Positions 1,189 to 23,978 are shown, counted from the stretch's first letter. The stretch is 49,389 nt of DNA from a virus (IMGVR_UViG_2851966386_000003:1-49389); one strand, 5' to 3'. Program-made: numbers and translations. The notes: a model not told the origin generated them from the sequence alone.

Positions 1189-1399
1189 TCCCCACGTTAT
1201 CTTCCCAGGCCAACAAGTCTGAAAGTCTCCACCTTTTAGGGCTGCCATTTATTTTAGGCTGCGGGAATGGCTGAGCAAAGTACGAGGGCATCCGGGATGG
1301 GGTGCTCCAGAAATAAAGTGTGCTGCGCGATATTTTGTATCTGGACAGAACGTCATCGGTTATCAAAATTTCATCTGATTTATGAGATGTATTAGTCAT
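1085..1399 (-). CDS. AlpA/Xis-like DNA-binding protein (putative excisionase/regulator)
   Basis: 104-aa ORF with AlpA-type signature (ISRSTLYFW...KRWRLSDLLAWE); convergent 3' overlap with int. Confidence 0.6.
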   Translation of the reverse strand: MTNTSHKSDEILITDDVLSRYKISRSTLYFWSTPSRMPSYFAQPFPQPKINGSPKRWRLSDLLAWEDNVGIKPEADQPASQGDPAKQQASDADHPDNHAGYNVP

Positions 1400-1408
1400 A
1401 AAAACCCC

Positions 1409-1648
1409 TTAGTTACATTGTCCAGGCAGATGGTGTAGCCGGCGCGCGCAGCTCATGGCTGTGGCCACATAGCTACTTTTTCTGTTAACAACTTCTACAG
1501 TGATCTTTGAGCCTTGAACCACCACCGTATAAGTTCTCTTCGTTTTCTGTCGCCCGTAAGCTCCATAAAGCTCAATGTGTTTTGCCAGCGCGGCATCGCA
1601 CGCCTGGCGGCCCAGAGGGGAGTGTCTGCTTCGGTTAATCAATCGCAT
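1409..1648 (-). CDS. Hypothetical small protein (79 aa)
   Basis: ORF 1409..1654; second Met at 1648 is preceded by AAGGA at ~6 nt spacing; sits between alpA-like and recT. Confidence 0.35.
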   Translation of the reverse strand: MRLINRSRHSPLGRQACDAALAKHIELYGAYGRQKTKRTYTVVVQGSKITVEVVNRKSSYVATAMSCARRLHHLPGQCN

Positions 1649-8155: not shown

Positions 8156-8416
8156 ATGAATCACATCGAATTTATTGAGAAGAACGTCCGCGAGGAACTT
8201 CTTCGCCAGGGCTTCACGCAAGCAGTGGCTCAGGGGGGGGCATACCAGGCGGTCGGTATGTACAAGCGGATGTCACAGGCAAGCCGAAAAGGGGGAATGT
8301 TTGACGATGTTATGCGACACGCAAAGTTATGGGCAGAGAAGCAGACCAGCGCAGCTGAACGCCGGGAAGCAAAGCGTAAAGTGCGAAAGGGCGGCGACCA
8401 GGCTGGGTTGTTCTGA
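8156..8416 (+). CDS. Hypothetical phage protein
   Basis: 86-aa ORF between regulatory genes and replication protein O. Confidence 0.4.
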   Translation: MNHIEFIEKNVREELLRQGFTQAVAQGGAYQAVGMYKRMSQASRKGGMFDDVMRHAKLWAEKQTSAAERREAKRKVRKGGDQAGLF

Positions 8417-8490
8417 AAGGGTGAAGACTGTTGTGCGCCAACACAGCCAGTCTTCGGGTGAATTAATTGGGTCAATTCACGGGATGAAGT

Positions 8491-9408
8491 ATGTCAAATA
8501 CCGCTGAAGTTATCAATTTTCCAATCAAAACCGAACTAACGGGAGGTCGCATGGCCGACCTGTCCAACGGCTATACCAGAATCGCCAATGAGATACAGAA
8601 ACTCAAACCGAGGCTGCGCATGTCCGGGCGCGAGTGGCAGTGTCTTGAGGCTGTTATCTGGCTTACCTACGGATGGAACAAAAAACAGGATCGGGTGACG
8701 AATACCGTGATTTCTGAGTTAACCGGCTTGAGTGATTCTCATGTTTCAGATGCGATAAAGCTACTCGCGGCACGGGGAATTATTTTTAGTCACAAGCATG
8801 GTGTGATGAAAACTGTCGGTATAAATACTGAGCTATCCGCCTGGATTTTGGACAAACCGAAAACGGGAAAACTCTTCCCGAAAACGGGAATTTCCTTCCC
8901 GGAATCGGGAAAAACCTTCCCGGAAACGGTAGACACCCAAGACTATAACAAAAACAATATTAAAAGATCTTCGTCTCGGAATTCTGAAGAATCCCGAAAC
9001 AAGGAAACATTGAAGTTTCTCTCTCGTCATCCAGAAGCGGTCGATGGGATTTATACCCCTGCAGGAAAATCCTGGGGAACAGCTGACGACCTCAAAGCCG
9101 CGCGATGGATTTTCGATAAAACCCTCACCGTGAATGCCTCCCTCTCAGAGCCGAACTGGGTTGAATGGGCAAATACCATCCGTCTGATGCGCATGCAGGA
9201 CAAACGCAGCCATTACGAAATTTGCGAATTGTTCAAGTGGGCCAACGAAGACAGCTTCTGGCAGAACAACATTCTGAGCCCCACCAGCCTGCGGAAACAG
9301 TGGGATCAGCTCACGACTAAACGCCTGCGCAACCATGGTCCATCCAGAAGCGCATCAGGCGCCAGTGCGCTGGACAACACAGACTGGATCAACGGGGTAC
9401 TCGAATGA
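8491..9408 (+). CDS. O: Replication initiator protein O (lambda O-like)
   Basis: N-terminus parallels lambda O (NTAEVINF...LTYGWNK...DRVT); iteron array embedded mid-gene. Confidence 0.85.
   Translation: MSNTAEVINFPIKTELTGGRMADLSNGYTRIANEIQKLKPRLRMSGREWQCLEAVIWLTYGWNKKQDRVTNTVISELTGLSDSHVSDAIKLLAARGIIFSHKHGVMKTVGINTELSAWILDKPKTGKLFPKTGISFPESGKTFPETVDTQDYNKNNIKRSSSRNSEESRNKETLKFLSRHPEAVDGIYTPAGKSWGTADDLKAARWIFDKTLTVNASLSEPNWVEWANTIRLMRMQDKRSHYEICELFKWANEDSFWQNNILSPTSLRKQWDQLTTKRLRNHGPSRSASGASALDNTDWINGVLE
8857..8975. repeat. Iteron array plus AT-rich tract inside O gene (putative phage origin)
   Basis: Repeated cccgaaaacgggaa-like units at 8857-8929 followed by AT-rich stretch caagactataacaaaaacaatattaaaag; same layout as lambda ori inside O. 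Confidence 0.6.
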
Positions 9409-18020: not shown

Positions 18021-18332
18021 ATGGCAAAGCATATGCAAGACAAAGAGAGCATGGCCGGAATCACCTGGCTGGCTCTGCTGATCATTGCTGGTTGGGGCGG
18101 CCTTGTCCGATTCCTGATGGATGTGAAGCAGGGCAAAGCAAAATGGAGCTGGATAAATGCCTTTGCGCAGATAGTGGTCTCTGCTTTCACTGGCGTCATT
18201 GGTGGGCTAATCAGCATTGAAAGTGGGCTGAGTATTTACATGATACTGGCCACTGCCGGTGTCAGTGGTGCTATGGGATCCGTAGCGCTTACGTATTTCT
18301 GGGAACGAATTACCGGAGTGAAAGCACAATGA
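18021..18332 (+). CDS. Holin
   Basis: 103-aa product with TM segments and charged C-terminus, possible dual start (MAKHM); GGAGGTG SD; directly upstream of endolysin with ATGA overlap. Confidence 0.7.
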   Translation: MAKHMQDKESMAGITWLALLIIAGWGGLVRFLMDVKQGKAKWSWINAFAQIVVSAFTGVIGGLISIESGLSIYMILATAGVSGAMGSVALTYFWERITGVKAQ

Positions 18333-18868
18333 CAGCAGACCAGATTATTGAAGGCATCCTGGGAAAAGAAGGTGGGTATGTCGATCACCCTTCTGACAAA
18401 GGCGGACCAACCCGCTGGGGCATCACGCAGACCACAGCTCGAGCACATGGTTACACCGGTGATATGAGAAACCTGCCCAGGGAAACAGCAAAGCAAATTC
18501 TGCTCAGCGATTACTGGACCGGCCCCCGATTCGATCAGGTGGCAAGTTTATCTACGTTACTGGCAGATGAGCTTTGCGACACTGGTGTGAACATGGGGCC
18601 AAATATTGCCAGTAAGTTTTTCCAGCGCTGGCTCACTGCCCTTAACATGCGCGGGAAGTTGTATCCCGATCTGATCCCGGATGGAGCCATTGGCCCCCGA
18701 ACCATCACCGCGCTTAAGGGATATCTTTCTGCCCGCGGGAAAGAGGGGGAACAGGTTCTGTTGCGTGCGCTGAACTGCAGCCAGGGTGCCAGATACCTCG
18801 AACTGGCGGAGGGCCGCGAAGCCAACGAGGATTTTCTCTACGGCTGGGTTAAGGAGCGTGTCCTGTGA
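18329..18868 (+). CDS. Endolysin, GH108 N-acetylmuramidase with peptidoglycan-binding domain
   Basis: N-terminal GH108 signature (EGGYVDHPSDKGGPTRWGIT). Confidence 0.85.
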   Translation: MTADQIIEGILGKEGGYVDHPSDKGGPTRWGITQTTARAHGYTGDMRNLPRETAKQILLSDYWTGPRFDQVASLSTLLADELCDTGVNMGPNIASKFFQRWLTALNMRGKLYPDLIPDGAIGPRTITALKGYLSARGKEGEQVLLRALNCSQGARYLELAEGREANEDFLYGWVKERVL

Positions 18869-19212
18869 AGATGATCATTTTCGCTTTGCTCGTGCTGGTG
18901 GCTGTGCTCGTTCTGTTACTGCTGCGCAAATATACCCGGCTGGAGTTCGTTGCCCATGCCAGCCTGCTGCTGAAAACGTGGTCTGTAAAGCTGGGGGCTA
19001 TCGGTGCGCTGGTTGGCATGTGGGTGCAGTCGTTCCCGGATGCTGCGCTGCACGCCTGGGCGATGCTGCCGCCGGACATTAAAAACATTTTGCCTTCAAA
19101 CATCGTGGCACTGATTAGCCCTGCGCTGGTGGTGCTGGCGGTGCTTTCGCAATACGTACGCCAGCCAGCATTGAAAGCTAAGGCCGACAAACTGAAGGAG
19201 CCGCAGCAATGA
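18865..19212 (+). CDS. Lysis-associated membrane protein (possible antiholin/LysA-like)
   Basis: 115-aa product with two hydrophobic helices; lies between endolysin and spanins. Confidence 0.45.
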   Translation: MKMIIFALLVLVAVLVLLLLRKYTRLEFVAHASLLLKTWSVKLGAIGALVGMWVQSFPDAALHAWAMLPPDIKNILPSNIVALISPALVVLAVLSQYVRQPALKAKADKLKEPQQ

Positions 19213-19484
19213 GCTTAGAAATTATTGCTGGTCTGGTGGTCGTCATCCTGGGCGCTATCGCTGGCGCGTTCGGCATAGGTCATGCTCGCGGGACCAGTAA
19301 GGCGGAAGCCAAAGCCGAGCAGCAGCGTACCGAAGAGAACGCCACCGCTACCATCGCTGCGGCAGAACGTAAGGCGGAAGTTGTGAAAGGGGCCAGTGAT
19401 GTACAGGAAGACGTTAAGCGTATGGGCGATGACGATGTTGATCGCGAGCTGCGCGAAAAGTTTACCCGCCCCGGTAGTCGTTGA
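19209..19484 (+). CDS. i-spanin (Rz-like)
   Basis: N-terminal TM helix then charged, coiled-coil-like region; contains overlapping out-of-frame lipoprotein ORF. Confidence 0.55.
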   Translation: MSLEIIAGLVVVILGAIAGAFGIGHARGTSKAEAKAEQQRTEENATATIAAAERKAEVVKGASDVQEDVKRMGDDDVDRELREKFTRPGSR

Positions 19485-19620
19485 TATGGCCTGCGGCTGG
19501 GTGAGGGTCATCTACCTGACCGACCACGATATAGACGCGCTGGATATGCAGACCAAGCGTGACATCCTGGCGCACAACAAAGCAGTGCAGGCCAACTGTC
19601 CGAGCATTACCCTTAAATAA
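19396..19620 (+). CDS. o-spanin (Rz1-like lipoprotein)
   Basis: Out-of-frame ORF overlapping 3' end of i-spanin; lipobox LIASC after short signal peptide. Confidence 0.55.
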   Translation: MMYRKTLSVWAMTMLIASCAKSLPAPVVVDMACGWVRVIYLTDHDIDALDMQTKRDILAHNKAVQANCPSITLK

Positions 19621-19824
19621 GGGGAAATGCTCCAGTAAAACAGCGCGAATGCCAAACGTGCAGCGGTTATTAGCGGCGATGATGTGACAGGAACTCAAGG
19701 GCACGGGCGCAGAGCACTGCGAGAGTGTGGTTGTGTAATCAGGTCATGGATCTTGTGTATAGACGTTCTCTGCGACACCAGGGTGACTTAGGCCTTCTTA
19801 CTGGAAGGCGGTAGTTAGAAAGCA

Positions 19825-19853
19825 GGGGTAGTGCCGGTTGACTACCCCTTTTG
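19825..19853 (+). terminator. Rho-independent terminator after lysis cassette
   Basis: ggggtag tgccggttga ctacccc followed by ttttgtg. Confidence 0.65.
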
Positions 19854-19871
19854 TGCAGAATTGGGTAAAAG

Positions 19872-19991
19872 TTAATACCTTTTTTTAAAAGTATTTTTAT
19901 ATTTCTTCGTTTCTCGCAAGTATGAAACCAGTGAACCCACTGCAACTAAAAGAAGAACTACAGCTAACGCTATCATCAGTATGGTTGTCAT
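19872..19991 (-). CDS. Small hydrophobic protein (39 aa), below ORF-track cutoff; type I toxin-like architecture
   Basis: Manual minus-strand translation MTTILMIALAVVLLLVAVGSLVSYLRETKKYKNTFKKRY; AGGAGGG SD 9 nt upstream; one TM helix plus basic tail. Confidence 0.4.
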   Translation of the reverse strand: MTTILMIALAVVLLLVAVGSLVSYLRETKKYKNTFKKRY

Positions 19992-20244
19992 GTGAGTTAA
20001 CCCTCCTAGGGACCATGGATATTATGGTTCGCATGAGGGGTAGTGTGGGATTTAAGTGAGAAAATTCCTAACTGGAATTTTTTCTTAATTTGAAACCTGA
20101 TATGAAACTTTATTGTTGGTTTTGTAATGATTCAATATGAAATGATTAATTATTGTCTGCCAGGATATACAGTTTTCCGAAAGAGGTGTTTTTACTGGTT
20201 ACATCGGATTGACTATGCACTTATCGCATAGCTAATGTAGATGC

Positions 20245-20351
20245 GTGGTGAATCCCCCTGTGCGGTGGGGCGACCAGCCAGGTTTTCTCTTTGAGCACAC
20301 ACGCAGGTCTGTTGGCTGGGGCAGACTTACCGGGAGGCACCCGGCACCACA
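20245..20351 (+). repeat. Copy 2 of ~108-nt structured repeat element
   Basis: gtggtgaatccccctgtgcggtggggcgaccagcc...ggctggggca...ccgggaggcacccggcaccaca; possible hairpin terminator at 20371-20397. Confidence 0.6.
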
Positions 20352-20544
20352 ACATACTGCATAACCCCATAAAGGCCTTCCATTACGGTAGGCCTTTTCT
20401 CTTCTGGTTGTATCTAATACTGTGGGCAGGTCAGCTGGCTTATGCAGGACAGATTATTTTTTCTTATTGAATGCCGCTTCTGGTGTGCTTATATTCTACC
20501 TAAAAATGGGTAGGTGTGTTGTGATTAGAAAATGCTATGCAAGA

Positions 20545-20904
20545 ATGTCTGACCCAGCATCAAATGACAAGCTGACACTGGAAATGCTTGTAACTGACGG
20601 TGGGCGTAAGATTTTTATCTGGGATTTTGATAAAGGGGTGGCAATTTTCTCTGAGGGTATAACAGGTAAGCAGTCTAAATACATAGTGCAAGGTGAAAAG
20701 CATGCAGGGCATATCAATCTTATCAGAGATAATACGATTGAGCGCACTATTTATGGGGTTAAGGAGCTCACCTGTGGAAATGGTGATTCCGGTAAATCCT
20801 CTCCTGTGTTTTGCTCATTGTGCGAGGGGCAGATACTCATAATCGAATGCCAAAAGGCTTTTATAAGAAAACCATTAAGGCTTGATGAACTCACCTTTGA
20901 ATAG
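20545..20904 (+). CDS. Hypothetical protein, AT-rich moron (start uncertain)
   Basis: ORF 20422..20904; weak SD; AT-rich. Confidence 0.3.
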   Translation: MSDPASNDKLTLEMLVTDGGRKIFIWDFDKGVAIFSEGITGKQSKYIVQGEKHAGHINLIRDNTIERTIYGVKELTCGNGDSGKSSPVFCSLCEGQILIIECQKAFIRKPLRLDELTFE

Positions 20905-21500
20905 AACTACTTACGATACATTCCTCATATGTTCGAAGGATATAACATCTCTCAGGTATCCTGCTTCTGGATGCCGGGAATGTGTACCGCTGGTGGGCTG
21001 GATTCTTGGAGCCTTTGCCCAGCAGTTTCAGGTGATAAAAAACCCCGTGGAGTAAATCCGACAAATTGACGGGGCGCTGCAGAGGCAGCCAATGTCGGAG
21101 TTTAGTCAGATTTCGAGGTGTTTTTCTACTGGTTTGAGAAAAAATGGATGGTCTGACACTACAGGAATTGGCTCATCCCTGAGCTCACGGGTAGAACAGT
21201 AGACTTTGTCATGGCAGAGCAAAGTCATAAGTAAGTGTAGAATGTGTTTCTGATTTAACAAGCGTAGCGAGTGTATGCTTCATGGATTGTACGTCTGTAA
21301 CTTTCATAATATTTCTGCCATTTCAAAATTAAGATACTAGGTAAAACCTTAGGGAATTTAGAGGGTAAGAGAAGCTGTGAACAAAAAAATCTCCTCGCGA
21401 AGCAATGTTTTTCACTTTAACGAAATATATTGTTTGCAATGTGGGTTTTTTAGTTCATCATGTATGCTACATTGAGTTCTTATAAAATGAGCTGCTAATT

Positions 21501-21707
21501 ATGACTGAGTGCAAACTTCCACAACTTCCAGAGTATTATCGATATGGTACTGAACAAATTAACAAGTTGCCTGGGAGTGGGGATGTTTTTCCTCCTGCGG
21601 GTAGTATAATAAAGTCAGTAAGTTTAAATGAAGGTGTATTTGTTTGTGTTCCGGTGCAGCGTTATATACACGGGTTGAATATTTGGGTTGTAGTTGAATC
21701 TTCTTGA
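21501..21707 (+). CDS. Hypothetical small protein (weak)
   Basis: 68-aa ORF in AT-rich region; weak SD. Confidence 0.25.
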   Translation: MTECKLPQLPEYYRYGTEQINKLPGSGDVFPPAGSIIKSVSLNEGVFVCVPVQRYIHGLNIWVVVESS

Positions 21708-21829
21708 TAATGATTTTTGTTTGGTAAAAGTGATTTTTCGTTGGTTTGGTGGTTTCTATTTATTATAAATTCGCTGTTGGAATTTAAAATTAGCATCATT
21801 GCAATGCTTTCAAACACCGTAGAAGGATT

Positions 21830-22024
21830 ATGATGCTAGTGCAAAATAATATTTATAATAATTCAGAGTCATATGCTATTCTTTTGTTTAGTATGTGGCC
21901 TGTCCTTATTGTACTTCTTGTCGTGATATCTTGCGCCTTTTACGGTGTATTGATGCATAAAACTGCAATTTGTTGTTTTCTGTCAGCTATGTTCCTTGGT
22001 GTCGCAGGCTGGTTTTATGGATGA
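21830..22024 (+). CDS. Small membrane protein
   Basis: 64-aa ORF with two hydrophobic helices; AAGGA SD. Confidence 0.3.
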   Translation: MMLVQNNIYNNSESYAILLFSMWPVLIVLLVVISCAFYGVLMHKTAICCFLSAMFLGVAGWFYG

Positions 22025-22178
22025 TCACCATTAGCTCTAATATGAGTCACTTTTTAGTATAAAGTCAGGGTGTCATTACTTTACCTGGCTTGTAGCGTTG
22101 GTTCCCTAAAGTTTGACGATAAAAGGCCCTGTTAATACAGGGCCTTTCTGTATGTATTATTTATCAAAGAGGTAAGAC

Positions 22179-22424
22179 ATGTCAGAGATCACCGCATCTG
22201 AGCAAATCCGCCTGGATATTATCAAGAAAGTGAATTACGACACTGCAGCGGCGAAGTTAGCCATTGACTGGGTAGGCGACAGCTATCTGAAGTCTGAGCT
22301 ATTCGCTGACTCTTTCGATCGTGTTTTCACGGAAAGTGAGATTGTCTCGAAGACCCGTAAGGCAATCCAGGAAGCGACCGAAGCGCTGGCGCTGTTTGAT
22401 ACTGCCGCTGAGCAGGTCAGCTAA
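22179..22424 (+). CDS. Hypothetical protein
   Basis: 81-aa ORF with AAGAGG SD ~6 nt upstream. Confidence 0.45.
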   Translation: MSEITASEQIRLDIIKKVNYDTAAAKLAIDWVGDSYLKSELFADSFDRVFTESEIVSKTRKAIQEATEALALFDTAAEQVS

Positions 22425-22749
22425 GGCATTACAGCAGGCGTTCATAGAGTGCCTGTGATAATGACCATCAGACAAATCGTCTGAGCTGACAGTTCAATCA
22501 ATCACCAATTACCAGTTACACGGGGTAACTGACATCATTGTCTGTTTATCCCGGTGAATTTTGAAATACTTACTACTCTCATAACGTCTCTGCCTGCCAA
22601 CACCAGAACGGCAGAGGTCAGTTAGCCGTATAGATGAACCTCTCCCGGGTGGCTCCTGAGAGATTCTTTATACGCTAGCTGGTAGTAACTAAAGGCCGCA
22701 TATTTTTGCGGCCTTTTTCATCATTTGTAAAATGAAAGCCCTCAGGCGA

Positions 22750-22878
22750 TTAACGATGCTCAGGACCATGGAAGTGATCTCCACCATGTCCGCCTCCATG
22801 GGGACCAGGGGGAAGGATACATCCTGAAAGTGACAGCGCACCACAGATCACAAAAACAGCAAGCATAATTCTTTTCAT
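22750..22878 (-). CDS. Small lipoprotein with His/Gly-rich mature region (42 aa), below ORF-track cutoff
   Basis: Manual translation MKRIMLAVFVICGALSLSGCILPPGPHGGGHGGDHFHGPEHR; lipobox LSGC; weak SD. Confidence 0.4.
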   Translation of the reverse strand: MKRIMLAVFVICGALSLSGCILPPGPHGGGHGGDHFHGPEHR

Positions 22879-22982
22879 AATAACTACTGAACTAAAGAGC
22901 CTTAATTCCAAAACATAAAAGTGAATATTTTATGGAGAATCAGTAATTCCTTTTTCTCCCTCACGTTAAAGAGGAATAATCC

Positions 22983-23978
22983 ATGGCAAAACCGGACTGG
23001 GGCGAGCTTCAGCAACGGTTCCTGTCCAATCATGCCGCAACCGGCGTATCACCGAAGGATTGGTGTGAAGCGCAGGGACTGAATTACGCTACTGCCCGCC
23101 GATACATCAAGAAACCCACTGCGCAAAAACCTGCGCAGAAGAAATTGCGCACTGCGCAAAAGGAAAAGTGCGCAGAAGAGCTGGTGGATGATGATGGCCT
23201 CACCGATCAACAACGTTTATTTGTCGCGGAATACCTGAAGGACAACAACGCCACGCAGGCCGCCATTCGAGCCGGGTATAGCAAGAAGACTGCTGAACAA
23301 ATTGGCTATCAGCTGCTTCAGAAAACTTCAGTTGCGCAGGCTATTGCGCAGCAGCAGAAAGCATCCATTGTGCGCACGCTCGGCAGCGCTGATGAAGTGC
23401 TTGAGCAGATGTGGCGCCTGGCCACCTTCGATGCCAACCAGCTATCACAGTATCGCCGCGGGAGTTGTCGTTACTGCTGGGGCTTTGGTCATCAGTATCA
23501 ATGGCGTGACGCTGTTGAGTATGAAGAGAAGCGGCTCGAAGCGCTTGAGCGAAAACGTCGCGAGCCCGTCGATGTTGGCGGCTACGGTTACGACCACACC
23601 AGCGCACCTAACCCGGAATGCCCCCGCTGCAATGGCGATGGCATAGGACAGCCTTTCTTCGCCGATACGCGCAAGCTGGCGCCTGATGCTGCGCTTGCCT
23701 ATTCCGGCGTGAAGCTCGGAAAGAACGGTGTGGAGATAACCGCCATCAGCCGTGAGCGCATGTACGAGGCGGTGATGAAACGTCTCGGCCTGGCTGATAG
23801 TGAGTTCGCCCAGCGACTGCAGCAGATAGAAATTGAGCGCCGGCAGCTGGAGATCGACAAACTTCGCAAAGAACTGGCCACTGACCCGGAGGATGACGAA
23901 CCAACGCCAGTTGCAATCAATATCAACGTAGTCGATGCGCGAGTGAGGGAAGAGGATGGCGATAGCTCCGACGCTTAA
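22983..23978 (+). CDS. Terminase small subunit with Cys-rich C-terminal extension
   Basis: Terminase-small signature (LTDQQRLFVAEYLKDNNATQAAIRAGYS) followed by CxxC motifs; upstream of terminase large subunit. Confidence 0.75.
   Translation: MAKPDWGELQQRFLSNHAATGVSPKDWCEAQGLNYATARRYIKKPTAQKPAQKKLRTAQKEKCAEELVDDDGLTDQQRLFVAEYLKDNNATQAAIRAGYSKKTAEQIGYQLLQKTSVAQAIAQQQKASIVRTLGSADEVLEQMWRLATFDANQLSQYRRGSCRYCWGFGHQYQWRDAVEYEEKRLEALERKRREPVDVGGYGYDHTSAPNPECPRCNGDGIGQPFFADTRKLAPDAALAYSGVKLGKNGVEITAISRERMYEAVMKRLGLADSEFAQRLQQIEIERRQLEIDKLRKELATDPEDDEPTPVAININVVDARVREEDGDSSDA

Follow-up and report, generated by a model that had tools for sequence, protein, structure and literature searches.

A putative 42-residue lipoprotein gene beside the terminase genes of a Klebsiella prophage

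The open reading frame and the evidence for its translation

The DNA analysed here is a viral stretch of 49,389 nucleotides (IMGVR_UViG_2851966386_000003:1-49389, called the window in the following), which is a lambdoid Klebsiella prophage. On its minus strand, next to the terminase gene terS, lies an open reading frame (ORF) of 42 codons and a TAA stop (22750..22878), whose product MKRIMLAVFVICGALSLSGCILPPGPHGGGHGGDHFHGPEHR begins with MKRIML, ends with PEHR and has the sequence features of a very small lipoprotein. An earlier note on this DNA had proposed a minus-strand ORF with a canonical lipobox at this place, and the ORF, its translation and its stop codon are as the note described them. 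The features of the product given below are all encoded on the minus strand. Residues 1-19 are read as a signal peptide (22822..22878), with the n-region Met-Lys-Arg followed by 16 uncharged residues and with the hydrophobic core IMLAVFVICGALSLSG, as expected for the n- and h-regions of a lipoprotein. The lipobox is formed by Leu17, Ser18, Gly19 and Cys20 (22819..22830), and Cys20, which is predicted to be acylated, begins the mature peptide. It agrees with the pattern [LVI][ASTVI][GAS]C at a Cys position within residues 15-35 and is kept in the homologues. The whole string Ser16-Leu17-Ser18-Gly19-Cys20 is invariant across the three alleles A, B and C described below, of which the window carries allele A, and in relatives from Rouxiella. 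Position +2 is Ile, or Phe in some allele A copies and Leu in two Rouxiella relatives, and is never Asp; position +3 is Leu or Phe in every copy. The mature peptide CILPPGPHGGGHGGDHFHGPEHR (22753..22821) has 23 residues, including 7 Gly, 5 His and 4 Pro, and is composed of an anchor-proximal C-ILPP segment, a P/H-GGG core (PHGGGHGG) and the C-terminal DHFHGPEHR. AlphaFold2 predicts a helix over residues 2-21 with a pLDDT of 84-89, and residues 22-42 without secondary structure at a pLDDT of about 50. Processing of the product as a lipoprotein is very probable, with acylation and location predicted from sequence rules.

A strict lipobox pattern, composed of a basic n-region, an unbroken hydrophobic core and L-[ASTV]-[GAS]-C, matches this ORF as the only one in the window, compared with 0.015 matches per shuffled window. 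A loose PROSITE-like pattern gives 14 matches in the window and 11.2 per Markov shuffle, and it was dropped as evidence because this count is not above chance. The decisive support for the gene is its conservation and not the pattern matching. A first scan with DNA patterns found related sequences in 97 IMG/VR stretches and in one GTDB genome, Klebsiella sp. WOUb02, and a second scan added more. The frame is open in all 100 complete copies of the first scan and in 116/116 copies of the wider set; loss of the frame in relatives had been named beforehand as the result that would speak against the gene. There are 34 distinct coding sequences (CDS), and the CDS of the window has exactly the DNA sequence that is most frequent in allele A, with 24 loci. 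Variable columns are concentrated at the third codon position, with 4, 3 and 15 at positions 1, 2 and 3 in allele A (binomial p = 9e-4) and 4, 1 and 20 in allele B (binomial p = 2e-6). By the Nei-Gojobori method, pairwise pN/pS lies at 0.07-0.11 in the leader and amounts to 0.23 in the tail of allele A and to 0.056 in that of allele B. The leader pS is below the tail pS. Between alleles the CDS is 129, 138, 141 or 144 nt long, so all indels are multiples of three. We conclude that the ORF is almost certainly a real protein-coding gene under purifying selection, as judged from these comparisons.

The closest phage records are the Klebsiella phages ST974-OXA48phi18.2, ST11-VIM1phi8.2 and ST16-OXA48phi5.1, with 91-93% identity over the region. 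The ORF had been called unlisted, which is right for the ORF track of the earlier reader but does not hold for GenBank MK416013 and for NCBI protein records, where it is annotated as a hypothetical protein. An overlapping alternative frame, annotated in MK448237, is ruled out by the codon-position statistics. A C5 homopolymer is found at codons 22-24 (L-P-P; 22808..22812, minus strand), and loss of one base in it explains the frameshifted 52-residue products (P0020-P0023, with SGCILPLGLIAADMVEITSMV) that are present in public protein sets, some of them on contigs of 5.4-5.5 Mb. The frameshift occurs in 0/116 of the loci examined. These 52-residue versions could be pseudogenes, phase variants or homopolymer errors.

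The Shine-Dalgarno (SD) position of the window copy (22884..22888, minus strand) reads AGTAG and lies 5 nt before the ATG. At the same 5-nt spacing AGGAG is found in 115/116 related copies, and the window copy alone is altered, by a G to T change at 22886. The SD had been described as weak, which is true of the window copy; since the other 115 copies have AGGAG, the weakness is a private mutation of this copy. AGTAG represents either a natural translation knock-down or a sequencing error. A leader hairpin sequestering the SD, suspected by eye, was rejected: the leader folds no better than its shuffles, with z-scores of +0.7 to +1.5, so the leader RNA is taken as unstructured and without SD sequestration.

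Three alleles, their relatives and distribution

The copies fall into discrete alleles. Allele A, at 78 loci, has the mature part CILPPGPH[G/S]GGHGGDHFHGPEHR with 23 residues and 5 His. Allele B, at 31 loci, has CILPPGGPGGGHGGGPGGGFSHGPGLR with 27 residues and 2 His. Allele C, at 6 loci, combines a diverged leader, MKKIILVIFVLCG.MSLSGC, with ILPPGG[H/P]GGGPGGGPGGGHFHGPDLR and has 2-3 His. The mature parts of alleles B and C are 27 residues of (P/H)GGG repeats. A comparison of alleles A and B shows that 110/110 upstream positions are identical, as are 57/60 positions of nucleotides 1-60, while the mature part agrees at 53/81 and the downstream sequence at 32/60 positions, the latter being unrelated. 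Because the two alleles share the upstream region and the leader and differ in the mature part and downstream, a mosaic joint is placed at the Cys codon. Between alleles A and C the upstream region is identical at 86/110 positions.

Elements conserved in the alleles and in distant relatives are S-L-S-G-C, [IL]-[LF]-P-P, a Gly-rich (P/H)GGG middle and an aromatic-His-Gly...basic C-terminus. The C-terminal hexamers differ by allele as HGPEHR, HGPGLR and HGPDLR. HGGG occurs in alleles A, B and C1 as well as in the Rouxiella relatives; C2 lacks it. His37 is the only near-invariant His across the alleles and the Rouxiella relatives, and His31 is replaced by Pro in allele C. Since only His37 is nearly invariant, the His-richness is a property of allele A and not a signature of the family. 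A homologue search for conservation of the His-rich tail had been suggested earlier; with only 2-3 His in alleles B and C, this tail is not established as the functional core.

In a word-indexed search 23 clusters were obtained, exclusively from Klebsiella, and an exhaustive HMM search over 1.84 billion representatives returned only 10 proteins at E <=0.001. The exact protein of the window is found on at least 1000 public Klebsiella contigs and allele B likewise on at least 1000. Named records are from K. pneumoniae, K. variicola, K. aerogenes and K. oxytoca and are nearly all called hypothetical protein. Complete E. coli genomes contain no match at near or distant sensitivity. Pfam gives no family match at E <=10, including Lambda_Bor, Rz1, Lysis_col and entericidin, and PADLOC gives no family at E <=0.1. 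In PHROG there are only matches at E >=0.26, which are to the signal peptide alone. The protein is no member of an NCBIfam family; the best one, LptM (NF047847), reaches 14 bits (E 0.041) against a cut-off of 27.7 and covers residues 1-20 only. Rfam at E <=1 over 19000..23500 has nothing on the lipoprotein gene. The sequence and its motifs were not found in the literature, and keyword searches for prophage lipoproteins gave nothing specific.

Credible among the distant matches are chromosomal mini-lipoproteins of Rouxiella (P0027, P0031 and P0032; MRRIL...SLSGCLFPPFWGPGGGGGHGGGGGGGGYHGGGPGR). They share SLSGC-[IL]-[LF]-P-P, a poly-Gly part in which His or aromatic residues occur, and Arg or His at the C-terminus. 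The hhalign probability is 98%, and P0027 is found with E = 1.4e-4 in the exhaustive HMM search. Common descent with these proteins is likely as judged from the alignments, with the similarity coming partly from the signal peptide and from low complexity. P0027, the only Rouxiella locus of the three that was fetched, is chromosomal and lies between ihfA and a DUF2502 gene, unlike the prophage gene. In the locus of Rouxiella sp. Mn2063 (L105, 5379..6126) a 41-residue Gly/His/Tyr-rich mini-lipoprotein is divergent from the DUF2502 gene, which itself encodes a protein with much His, Trp, Gly and Pro. Two E. coli genes of the DUF2502 family, ypeC and yaaX, are induced when Lol is inhibited, and regulation by RcsB is reported for yaaX (PMC5105897, PMC8470065). 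By analogy, the DUF2502 link would be a thin lead towards envelope stress.

A set of unrelated lipoproteins of 50-60 residues (L129, 5001..5500; P0072-P0082; LLSGCIIVPHRHGGYRG...HGHYQGGPVYVQPGPRR, ...PVYVQPGPRR) was observed on metagenome contigs with no phage genes in view. At the two fetched loci of this type the lipoprotein gene overlaps the following 114-residue gene by 4 nt. The style of tiny His/Gly/Tyr-rich lipoproteins is not confined to phages, because unrelated chromosomes encode such a set. Those of this style that end in Arg may form a wider class, as yet undescribed.

Position in the prophage and control regions

In the late region of the window, on the plus strand, a holin (18021..18332), an endolysin (18329..18868) and a second holin-like protein (18865..19212) are followed by an i-spanin (19209..19484) and an overlapping o-spanin (19396..19620), which belong to phrog_1026 and phrog_1275. 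After an AT-rich cargo stretch comes a DUF2560 gene (22179..22424, plus strand). The terS gene (22983..23978, plus strand, phrog_51) starts 104 nt from the ATG of the lipoprotein gene, and terL is next. The lipoprotein gene runs antisense to the late operon; with the DUF2560 gene it is convergent, and it diverges from terS. A small lipoprotein-type gene upstream of the terminase had been claimed; a gene of this type adjoining the terminase genes is supported, but it lies on the opposite strand and is divergent, not co-directional. The fetched loci reach about 10-14 kb, and the tail genes are 16-21 kb away.

At the allele B loci, terS, the small gene and the DUF2560 gene form a trio beside unrelated lysis cassettes. 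In Klebsiella phage ST846-OXA48phi9.2 the slot is occupied by an unrelated antisense gene of 111 residues (1250..1585 in the fetched locus L126) beside a homologous terS, followed by a DUF2513 gene. Because this phage has another gene there, the position adjoining terS is considered a cargo hot spot, and for the same reason the small gene behaves as a moron, being absent or replaced in close relatives. The base composition also agrees with a moron, since the GC content is 31% in the intergenic region and 49% in the CDS, versus 56% in terS and 50.5% in the window. The allele C copies adjoin a prophage integrase and keep the upstream block, with only about 25 nt of terS left. The gene thus outlives the packaging genes, which suggests retention without them. 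We consider it probable that the gene is a moron, i.e. an independently transcribed cargo gene, which would be expressed in the lysogen from a promoter of its own.

The leader and the presumed promoter are contained in the divergent intergenic region shared with terS (22879..22982, 104 nt, 31% GC). The best -10 candidate is TAAAAT (22927..22932, minus strand), which matches at 5 of 6 positions and is invariant in every copy, allele C included; it may act as a promoter element. A sigma-E-like promoter read by eye was rejected for its wrong spacing. A string resembling an RcsAB box is observed at 22971..22984 on the minus strand, 93-106 nt upstream of the lipoprotein ATG and overlapping the terS start codon. 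It reads ATGGATTATTCCTC in the window, ATGGATTATTCCTA in the relatives and GGAATATTCC in allele C. The relatives' version matches 10/14 positions of the RcsAB box consensus, TAAGAATATTCCTA. Since the chance probability in the intergenic region is estimated at about 0.07, this string is a mere lead for an activator-dependent promoter.

Downstream, a GC-rich hairpin AAAAAGGCCGC-AAAAATAT-GCGGCCTTT (22691..22718) starts 31 nt past the stop and is followed by T3 on the minus and T5 on the plus strand. The 78-nt 3' region of allele A folds with -24.4 kcal/mol (z -4.05) and is terminator-like on both strands; a consensus scan did not list the hairpin at 22691..22718. In alleles B and C the stop is likewise followed by a stable hairpin, a different and unrelated one in each (z -2.2 and -3.28). 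The gene has in this way a terminator of its own, as expected of a moron, and the T-tract on the gene strand of allele A is short (T3). The whole non-coding stretch of 325 nt between the DUF2560 stop and the lipoprotein stop (22425..22749) is predicted to be far more structured than its shuffles, with -117.7 kcal/mol and z -8.5 for the plus strand and z -4.25 for the minus strand. Its part 22600..22721 is common, at 75-78% identity, to the Klebsiella phages ST846-OXA48phi9.2 and KPP5665-2 and the Salmonella phage SEN34, which are without the lipoprotein gene. The structured stretch is absent from allele B loci, and one long arm is not retained in ST16-OXA48phi5.1. The fold could be related to a packaging site, to a small RNA (sRNA) or to stacked terminators.

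Further elements are found in the cargo regions. Between the spanins and the DUF2560 gene, the AT-rich stretch of the window contains a full-length match to the Rfam sRNA STnc100 (20217..20405, plus strand; 81.5 bits, gathering score 47, E 5e-17). A 39-codon ORF (MTTILMIALAVVLLLVAVGSLVSYLRETKKYKNTFKKRY; 19872..19991, minus strand) with one hydrophobic helix and a basic tail lies in a stretch of 33% GC and is antisense to the late genes. Neither PHROG nor PADLOC gives a match for it, and it looks like a small membrane peptide or type I toxin-like gene. In allele B prophages (L101/L102, 7431..7712 and 8266..8550) an anti-defence gene of the Acb2/Tad1-hairpin family is found in the cargo stretch that separates the lysis cassette from the DUF2560 gene, and one of these prophages has an additional TonB_C-domain gene.

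A proposed tethered peptide, its possible ligand and known counterparts

With the ligand left aside, we lean towards the reading that the gene is a lysogen-expressed moron whose product is a disordered lipopeptide anchored in the outer membrane. The 42-residue precursor would be exported via Sec, Cys20 would be diacylated by Lgt, and after the cut by signal peptidase II (LspA) the new N-terminus would be acylated by Lnt. Lol transport would then bring the product to the periplasmic face of the outer membrane; sorting to this membrane is expected because position +2 is Ile and not Asp, the inner-membrane retention signal. The product would be a triacylated peptide of 23 residues without a fold, with a C-I-L-P-P stub, a flexible Gly/Pro/His stretch of (P/H)GGG type and an aromatic-His-Gly-Pro-x-x-Arg end. 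Made in the lysogen, it would serve as a tethered ligand in the periplasm.

What it would bind can be proposed for allele A only tentatively. Our guess is Cu(II), Ni(II) or Zn(II), which would be coordinated by the imidazoles of His and the amides of the following Gly residues. Allele A has 5 His, an Asp and a Glu within 23 residues, including PHGGG, HGG and H-x-H. It thus contains the HGGG-type motif, i.e. a His with at least two following Gly and ideally a preceding Pro, and such a motif match is not binding. Metal binding is chemically plausible for allele A only, and by analogy with known metal-binding repeats a transition metal is a possible but doubtful ligand of the allele A peptide ILPPGPHGGGHGGDHFHGPEHR.

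Several observations weigh against this picture. Concerning the metal as a function of the family, alleles B and C have 2-3 His, one C subtype is without HGGG, and His37 alone is near-invariant. The very strong selection on the exact Gly and Pro positions of allele B (pN/pS 0.056) would be explained by a specific partner no less well than by a metal sponge, and no metal-responsive regulator or transporter is found near the gene. Concerning expression, no recognisable -35 hexamer is paired with the TAAAAT candidate, and a consensus scan finds no sigma-70 site in the intergenic region. The best sigma-70 candidates agree at 7/12 positions. With its SD lost, the window copy itself may be poorly translated. 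The lipid modification and the location are predictions from sequence rules only.

The main rival to a metal ligand is superinfection exclusion. Here the lipopeptide would bind a host outer-membrane or periplasmic protein, such as a phage receptor, a porin, Lpt, Bam or Lol, and the alleles would be specificity variants. Exclusion is a typical job for phage-encoded outer-membrane lipoproteins. Discrete alleles in which a constant leader and upstream region (57/60 and 110/110) carry a swapped mature part (53/81) and different terminators would be in line with it, and the strong purifying selection inside each allele, with the Gly and Pro positions included, suits a specific partner. However, the mature part has only 23-27 residues and is predicted to be disordered, whereas the exclusion proteins Llp and Cor are folded and have at least 60 residues. 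There is no PHROG or PADLOC match, the gene does not adjoin tail or receptor-binding genes, and Rouxiella chromosomes encode comparable tiny peptides outside prophages. We regard exclusion as unlikely. A more far-reaching version, which we consider a long shot, is that the alleles serve as specificity cassettes within a new class of extremely short phage lipopeptides, whose Gly/Pro chain, with its minimal cross-section, would engage an outer-membrane machine or pass through the lumen of a porin in a manner similar to the RcsF linker. Possible targets would be OmpK36/OmpK35, LptDE and Bam. If true, phage entry, envelope-stress signalling or permeability would be altered in Klebsiella lysogens, and the Rouxiella genes, like similar tiny His/Gly/Tyr lipoproteins elsewhere, would represent the form of this device that hosts encode.

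A function in lysis or membrane damage, with the lipopeptide as a spare o-spanin or as a counterpart of entericidin B or the colicin release proteins, is very unlikely. The comparable size with a lipobox, the location between the lysis and packaging genes and a weak BLASTP match to the Pro-rich segment of lambda Rz1 (E 0.002 over 29 residues) would speak for it. But the Rz1 alignment is compositional and pairs the lipobox Cys with a Cys outside a lipobox, and Pfam gave no Rz1, Lysis_col or entericidin match at E <=10. A lysis role is made unlikely above all by the wrong strand, antisense to the late operon that drives lysis, by the overlapping i-spanin/o-spanin pair, which is already complete, and by the variable lysis cassettes beside which the gene travels with terS and the DUF2560 gene. 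The identity as an o-spanin itself was rejected, since the gene lies 3.1 kb away from the spanin pair (19209..19620), is encoded on the other strand and has no Pfam or PHROG spanin match.

The peptide might alternatively escape lipidation and remain a single-pass inner-membrane peptide of type I toxin-like or regulatory kind, or be a precursor from which the signal or tail peptide is released to act as a signal, similar to arbitrium or the enterococcal pheromones. Its size and single hydrophobic helix resemble small membrane peptides, the C-terminal hexamers vary by allele, and the leader is the most conserved part (pN/pS 0.07-0.11, pS below the tail). The low leader pS is explained by the mosaic joint, which places the leader in the conserved block proximal to terS. 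Because the lipobox is invariant, pointing to its use, and no antisense sRNA, receptor or regulator gene is linked, an unprocessed peptide or signalling precursor is most improbable. Finally, a chance ORF in a non-coding region, conserved on account of the terS start, a packaging site or a regulatory element, might be suspected from its shortness, from the roughly 11 loose lipobox matches that arise per window by chance, from the upstream block conserved along with the terS start and from the GenBank record with another frame, but it has a negligible probability and is refuted as far as comparative sequence analysis reaches by the third-position bias with in-frame pN/pS of 0.06-0.23, 0/116 frame disruptions, the correctly spaced SD in 115/116 copies, inter-allele indels in multiples of three and the persistence of the ORF where terS is lost.

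We describe a well-supported gene of a new, uncharacterised family, which is no surprise in kind, as prophage moron lipoproteins and tiny enterobacterial lipopeptides are already known. Klebsiella pneumoniae is a priority pathogen, and prophages supply much of its accessory gene content. The gene is widespread in this clinically important genus, yet it is under many gene-calling cut-offs and is sometimes annotated in the wrong frame. Should the lipopeptide bind Cu, Ni or Zn, or should it obstruct a porin or a phage receptor, it would count as a lysogenic-conversion factor with relevance to metal stress in the host, to how phage therapy turns out or to the permeability of the envelope. With three natural alleles, a synthesisable peptide and a natural SD-knockdown copy in the window, it is also a test case for tiny disordered lipoproteins.

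A comparison with known systems gives partial likenesses in each case. Bor is a prophage-expressed outer-membrane lipoprotein of lambda that confers serum resistance. Lambda Bor and BorD of DLP12 occupy the same slot in the same orientation, past the spanins Rz/Rz1, before terS/nu1 and opposite to the late operon, the lambda gene lying between Rz/Rz1 and the genome end. Bor likewise has a lipoprotein signal peptide, and prophage expression is presumed to be common to both. In sequence the two are not similar: BLASTP finds nothing at E <=100 and Pfam no Lambda_Bor match, and Bor is folded with about 80 mature residues, unlike the disordered 23-residue peptide proposed here. Among the exclusion lipoproteins, Cor of phi80 and N15 acts via FhuA. 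Llp of T5 and Cor of phi80, N15 and HK022 differ from the present protein in that no PHROG or PADLOC homology links them to it, and they have a fold and two to three times the length, and their genes adjoin receptor-binding or tail genes, whereas the present gene is beside terS. Llp acts on FhuA in superinfection exclusion, as described in a preprint (bioRxiv 10.64898/2026.03.26.714494). The o-spanins of Rz1 type are likewise very small phage lipoproteins with a Pro-rich mature part and a weak compositional match, but the present gene is opposite to the lysis genes and neither embedded in nor adjoining an i-spanin gene.

The octarepeat of the prion protein, PHGGGWGQ, is a Cu(II)/Zn(II) site. 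It binds Cu(II) with its His and the next two Gly amides, and HGGG(W) is the minimal Cu(II) unit (PMC6721516). Allele A has PHGGG followed by HGG, and both chains are disordered and lipid-tethered to a membrane, as predicted for allele A. The two are not homologous, Trp is absent, one or two units are present instead of four, and alleles B and C are His-poor. LptM (YifL) is also a small lipoprotein, whose functional part is a short, Pro-containing disordered segment at the N-terminus of the mature protein; the present protein, with 14 bits against 27.7 and a match to the signal peptide only, is not a member of its family. Entericidins A and B and the colicin release proteins are amphipathic or polar and not built of Gly/Pro/His repeats, have no Pfam match here and are encoded by chromosomal stress genes or plasmid lysis genes, not by prophage morons. 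Yet they rank among the shortest enterobacterial lipoproteins known, with about 21-28 mature residues, a size similar to that of the peptide described here, and they demonstrate that such tiny lipopeptides can function.

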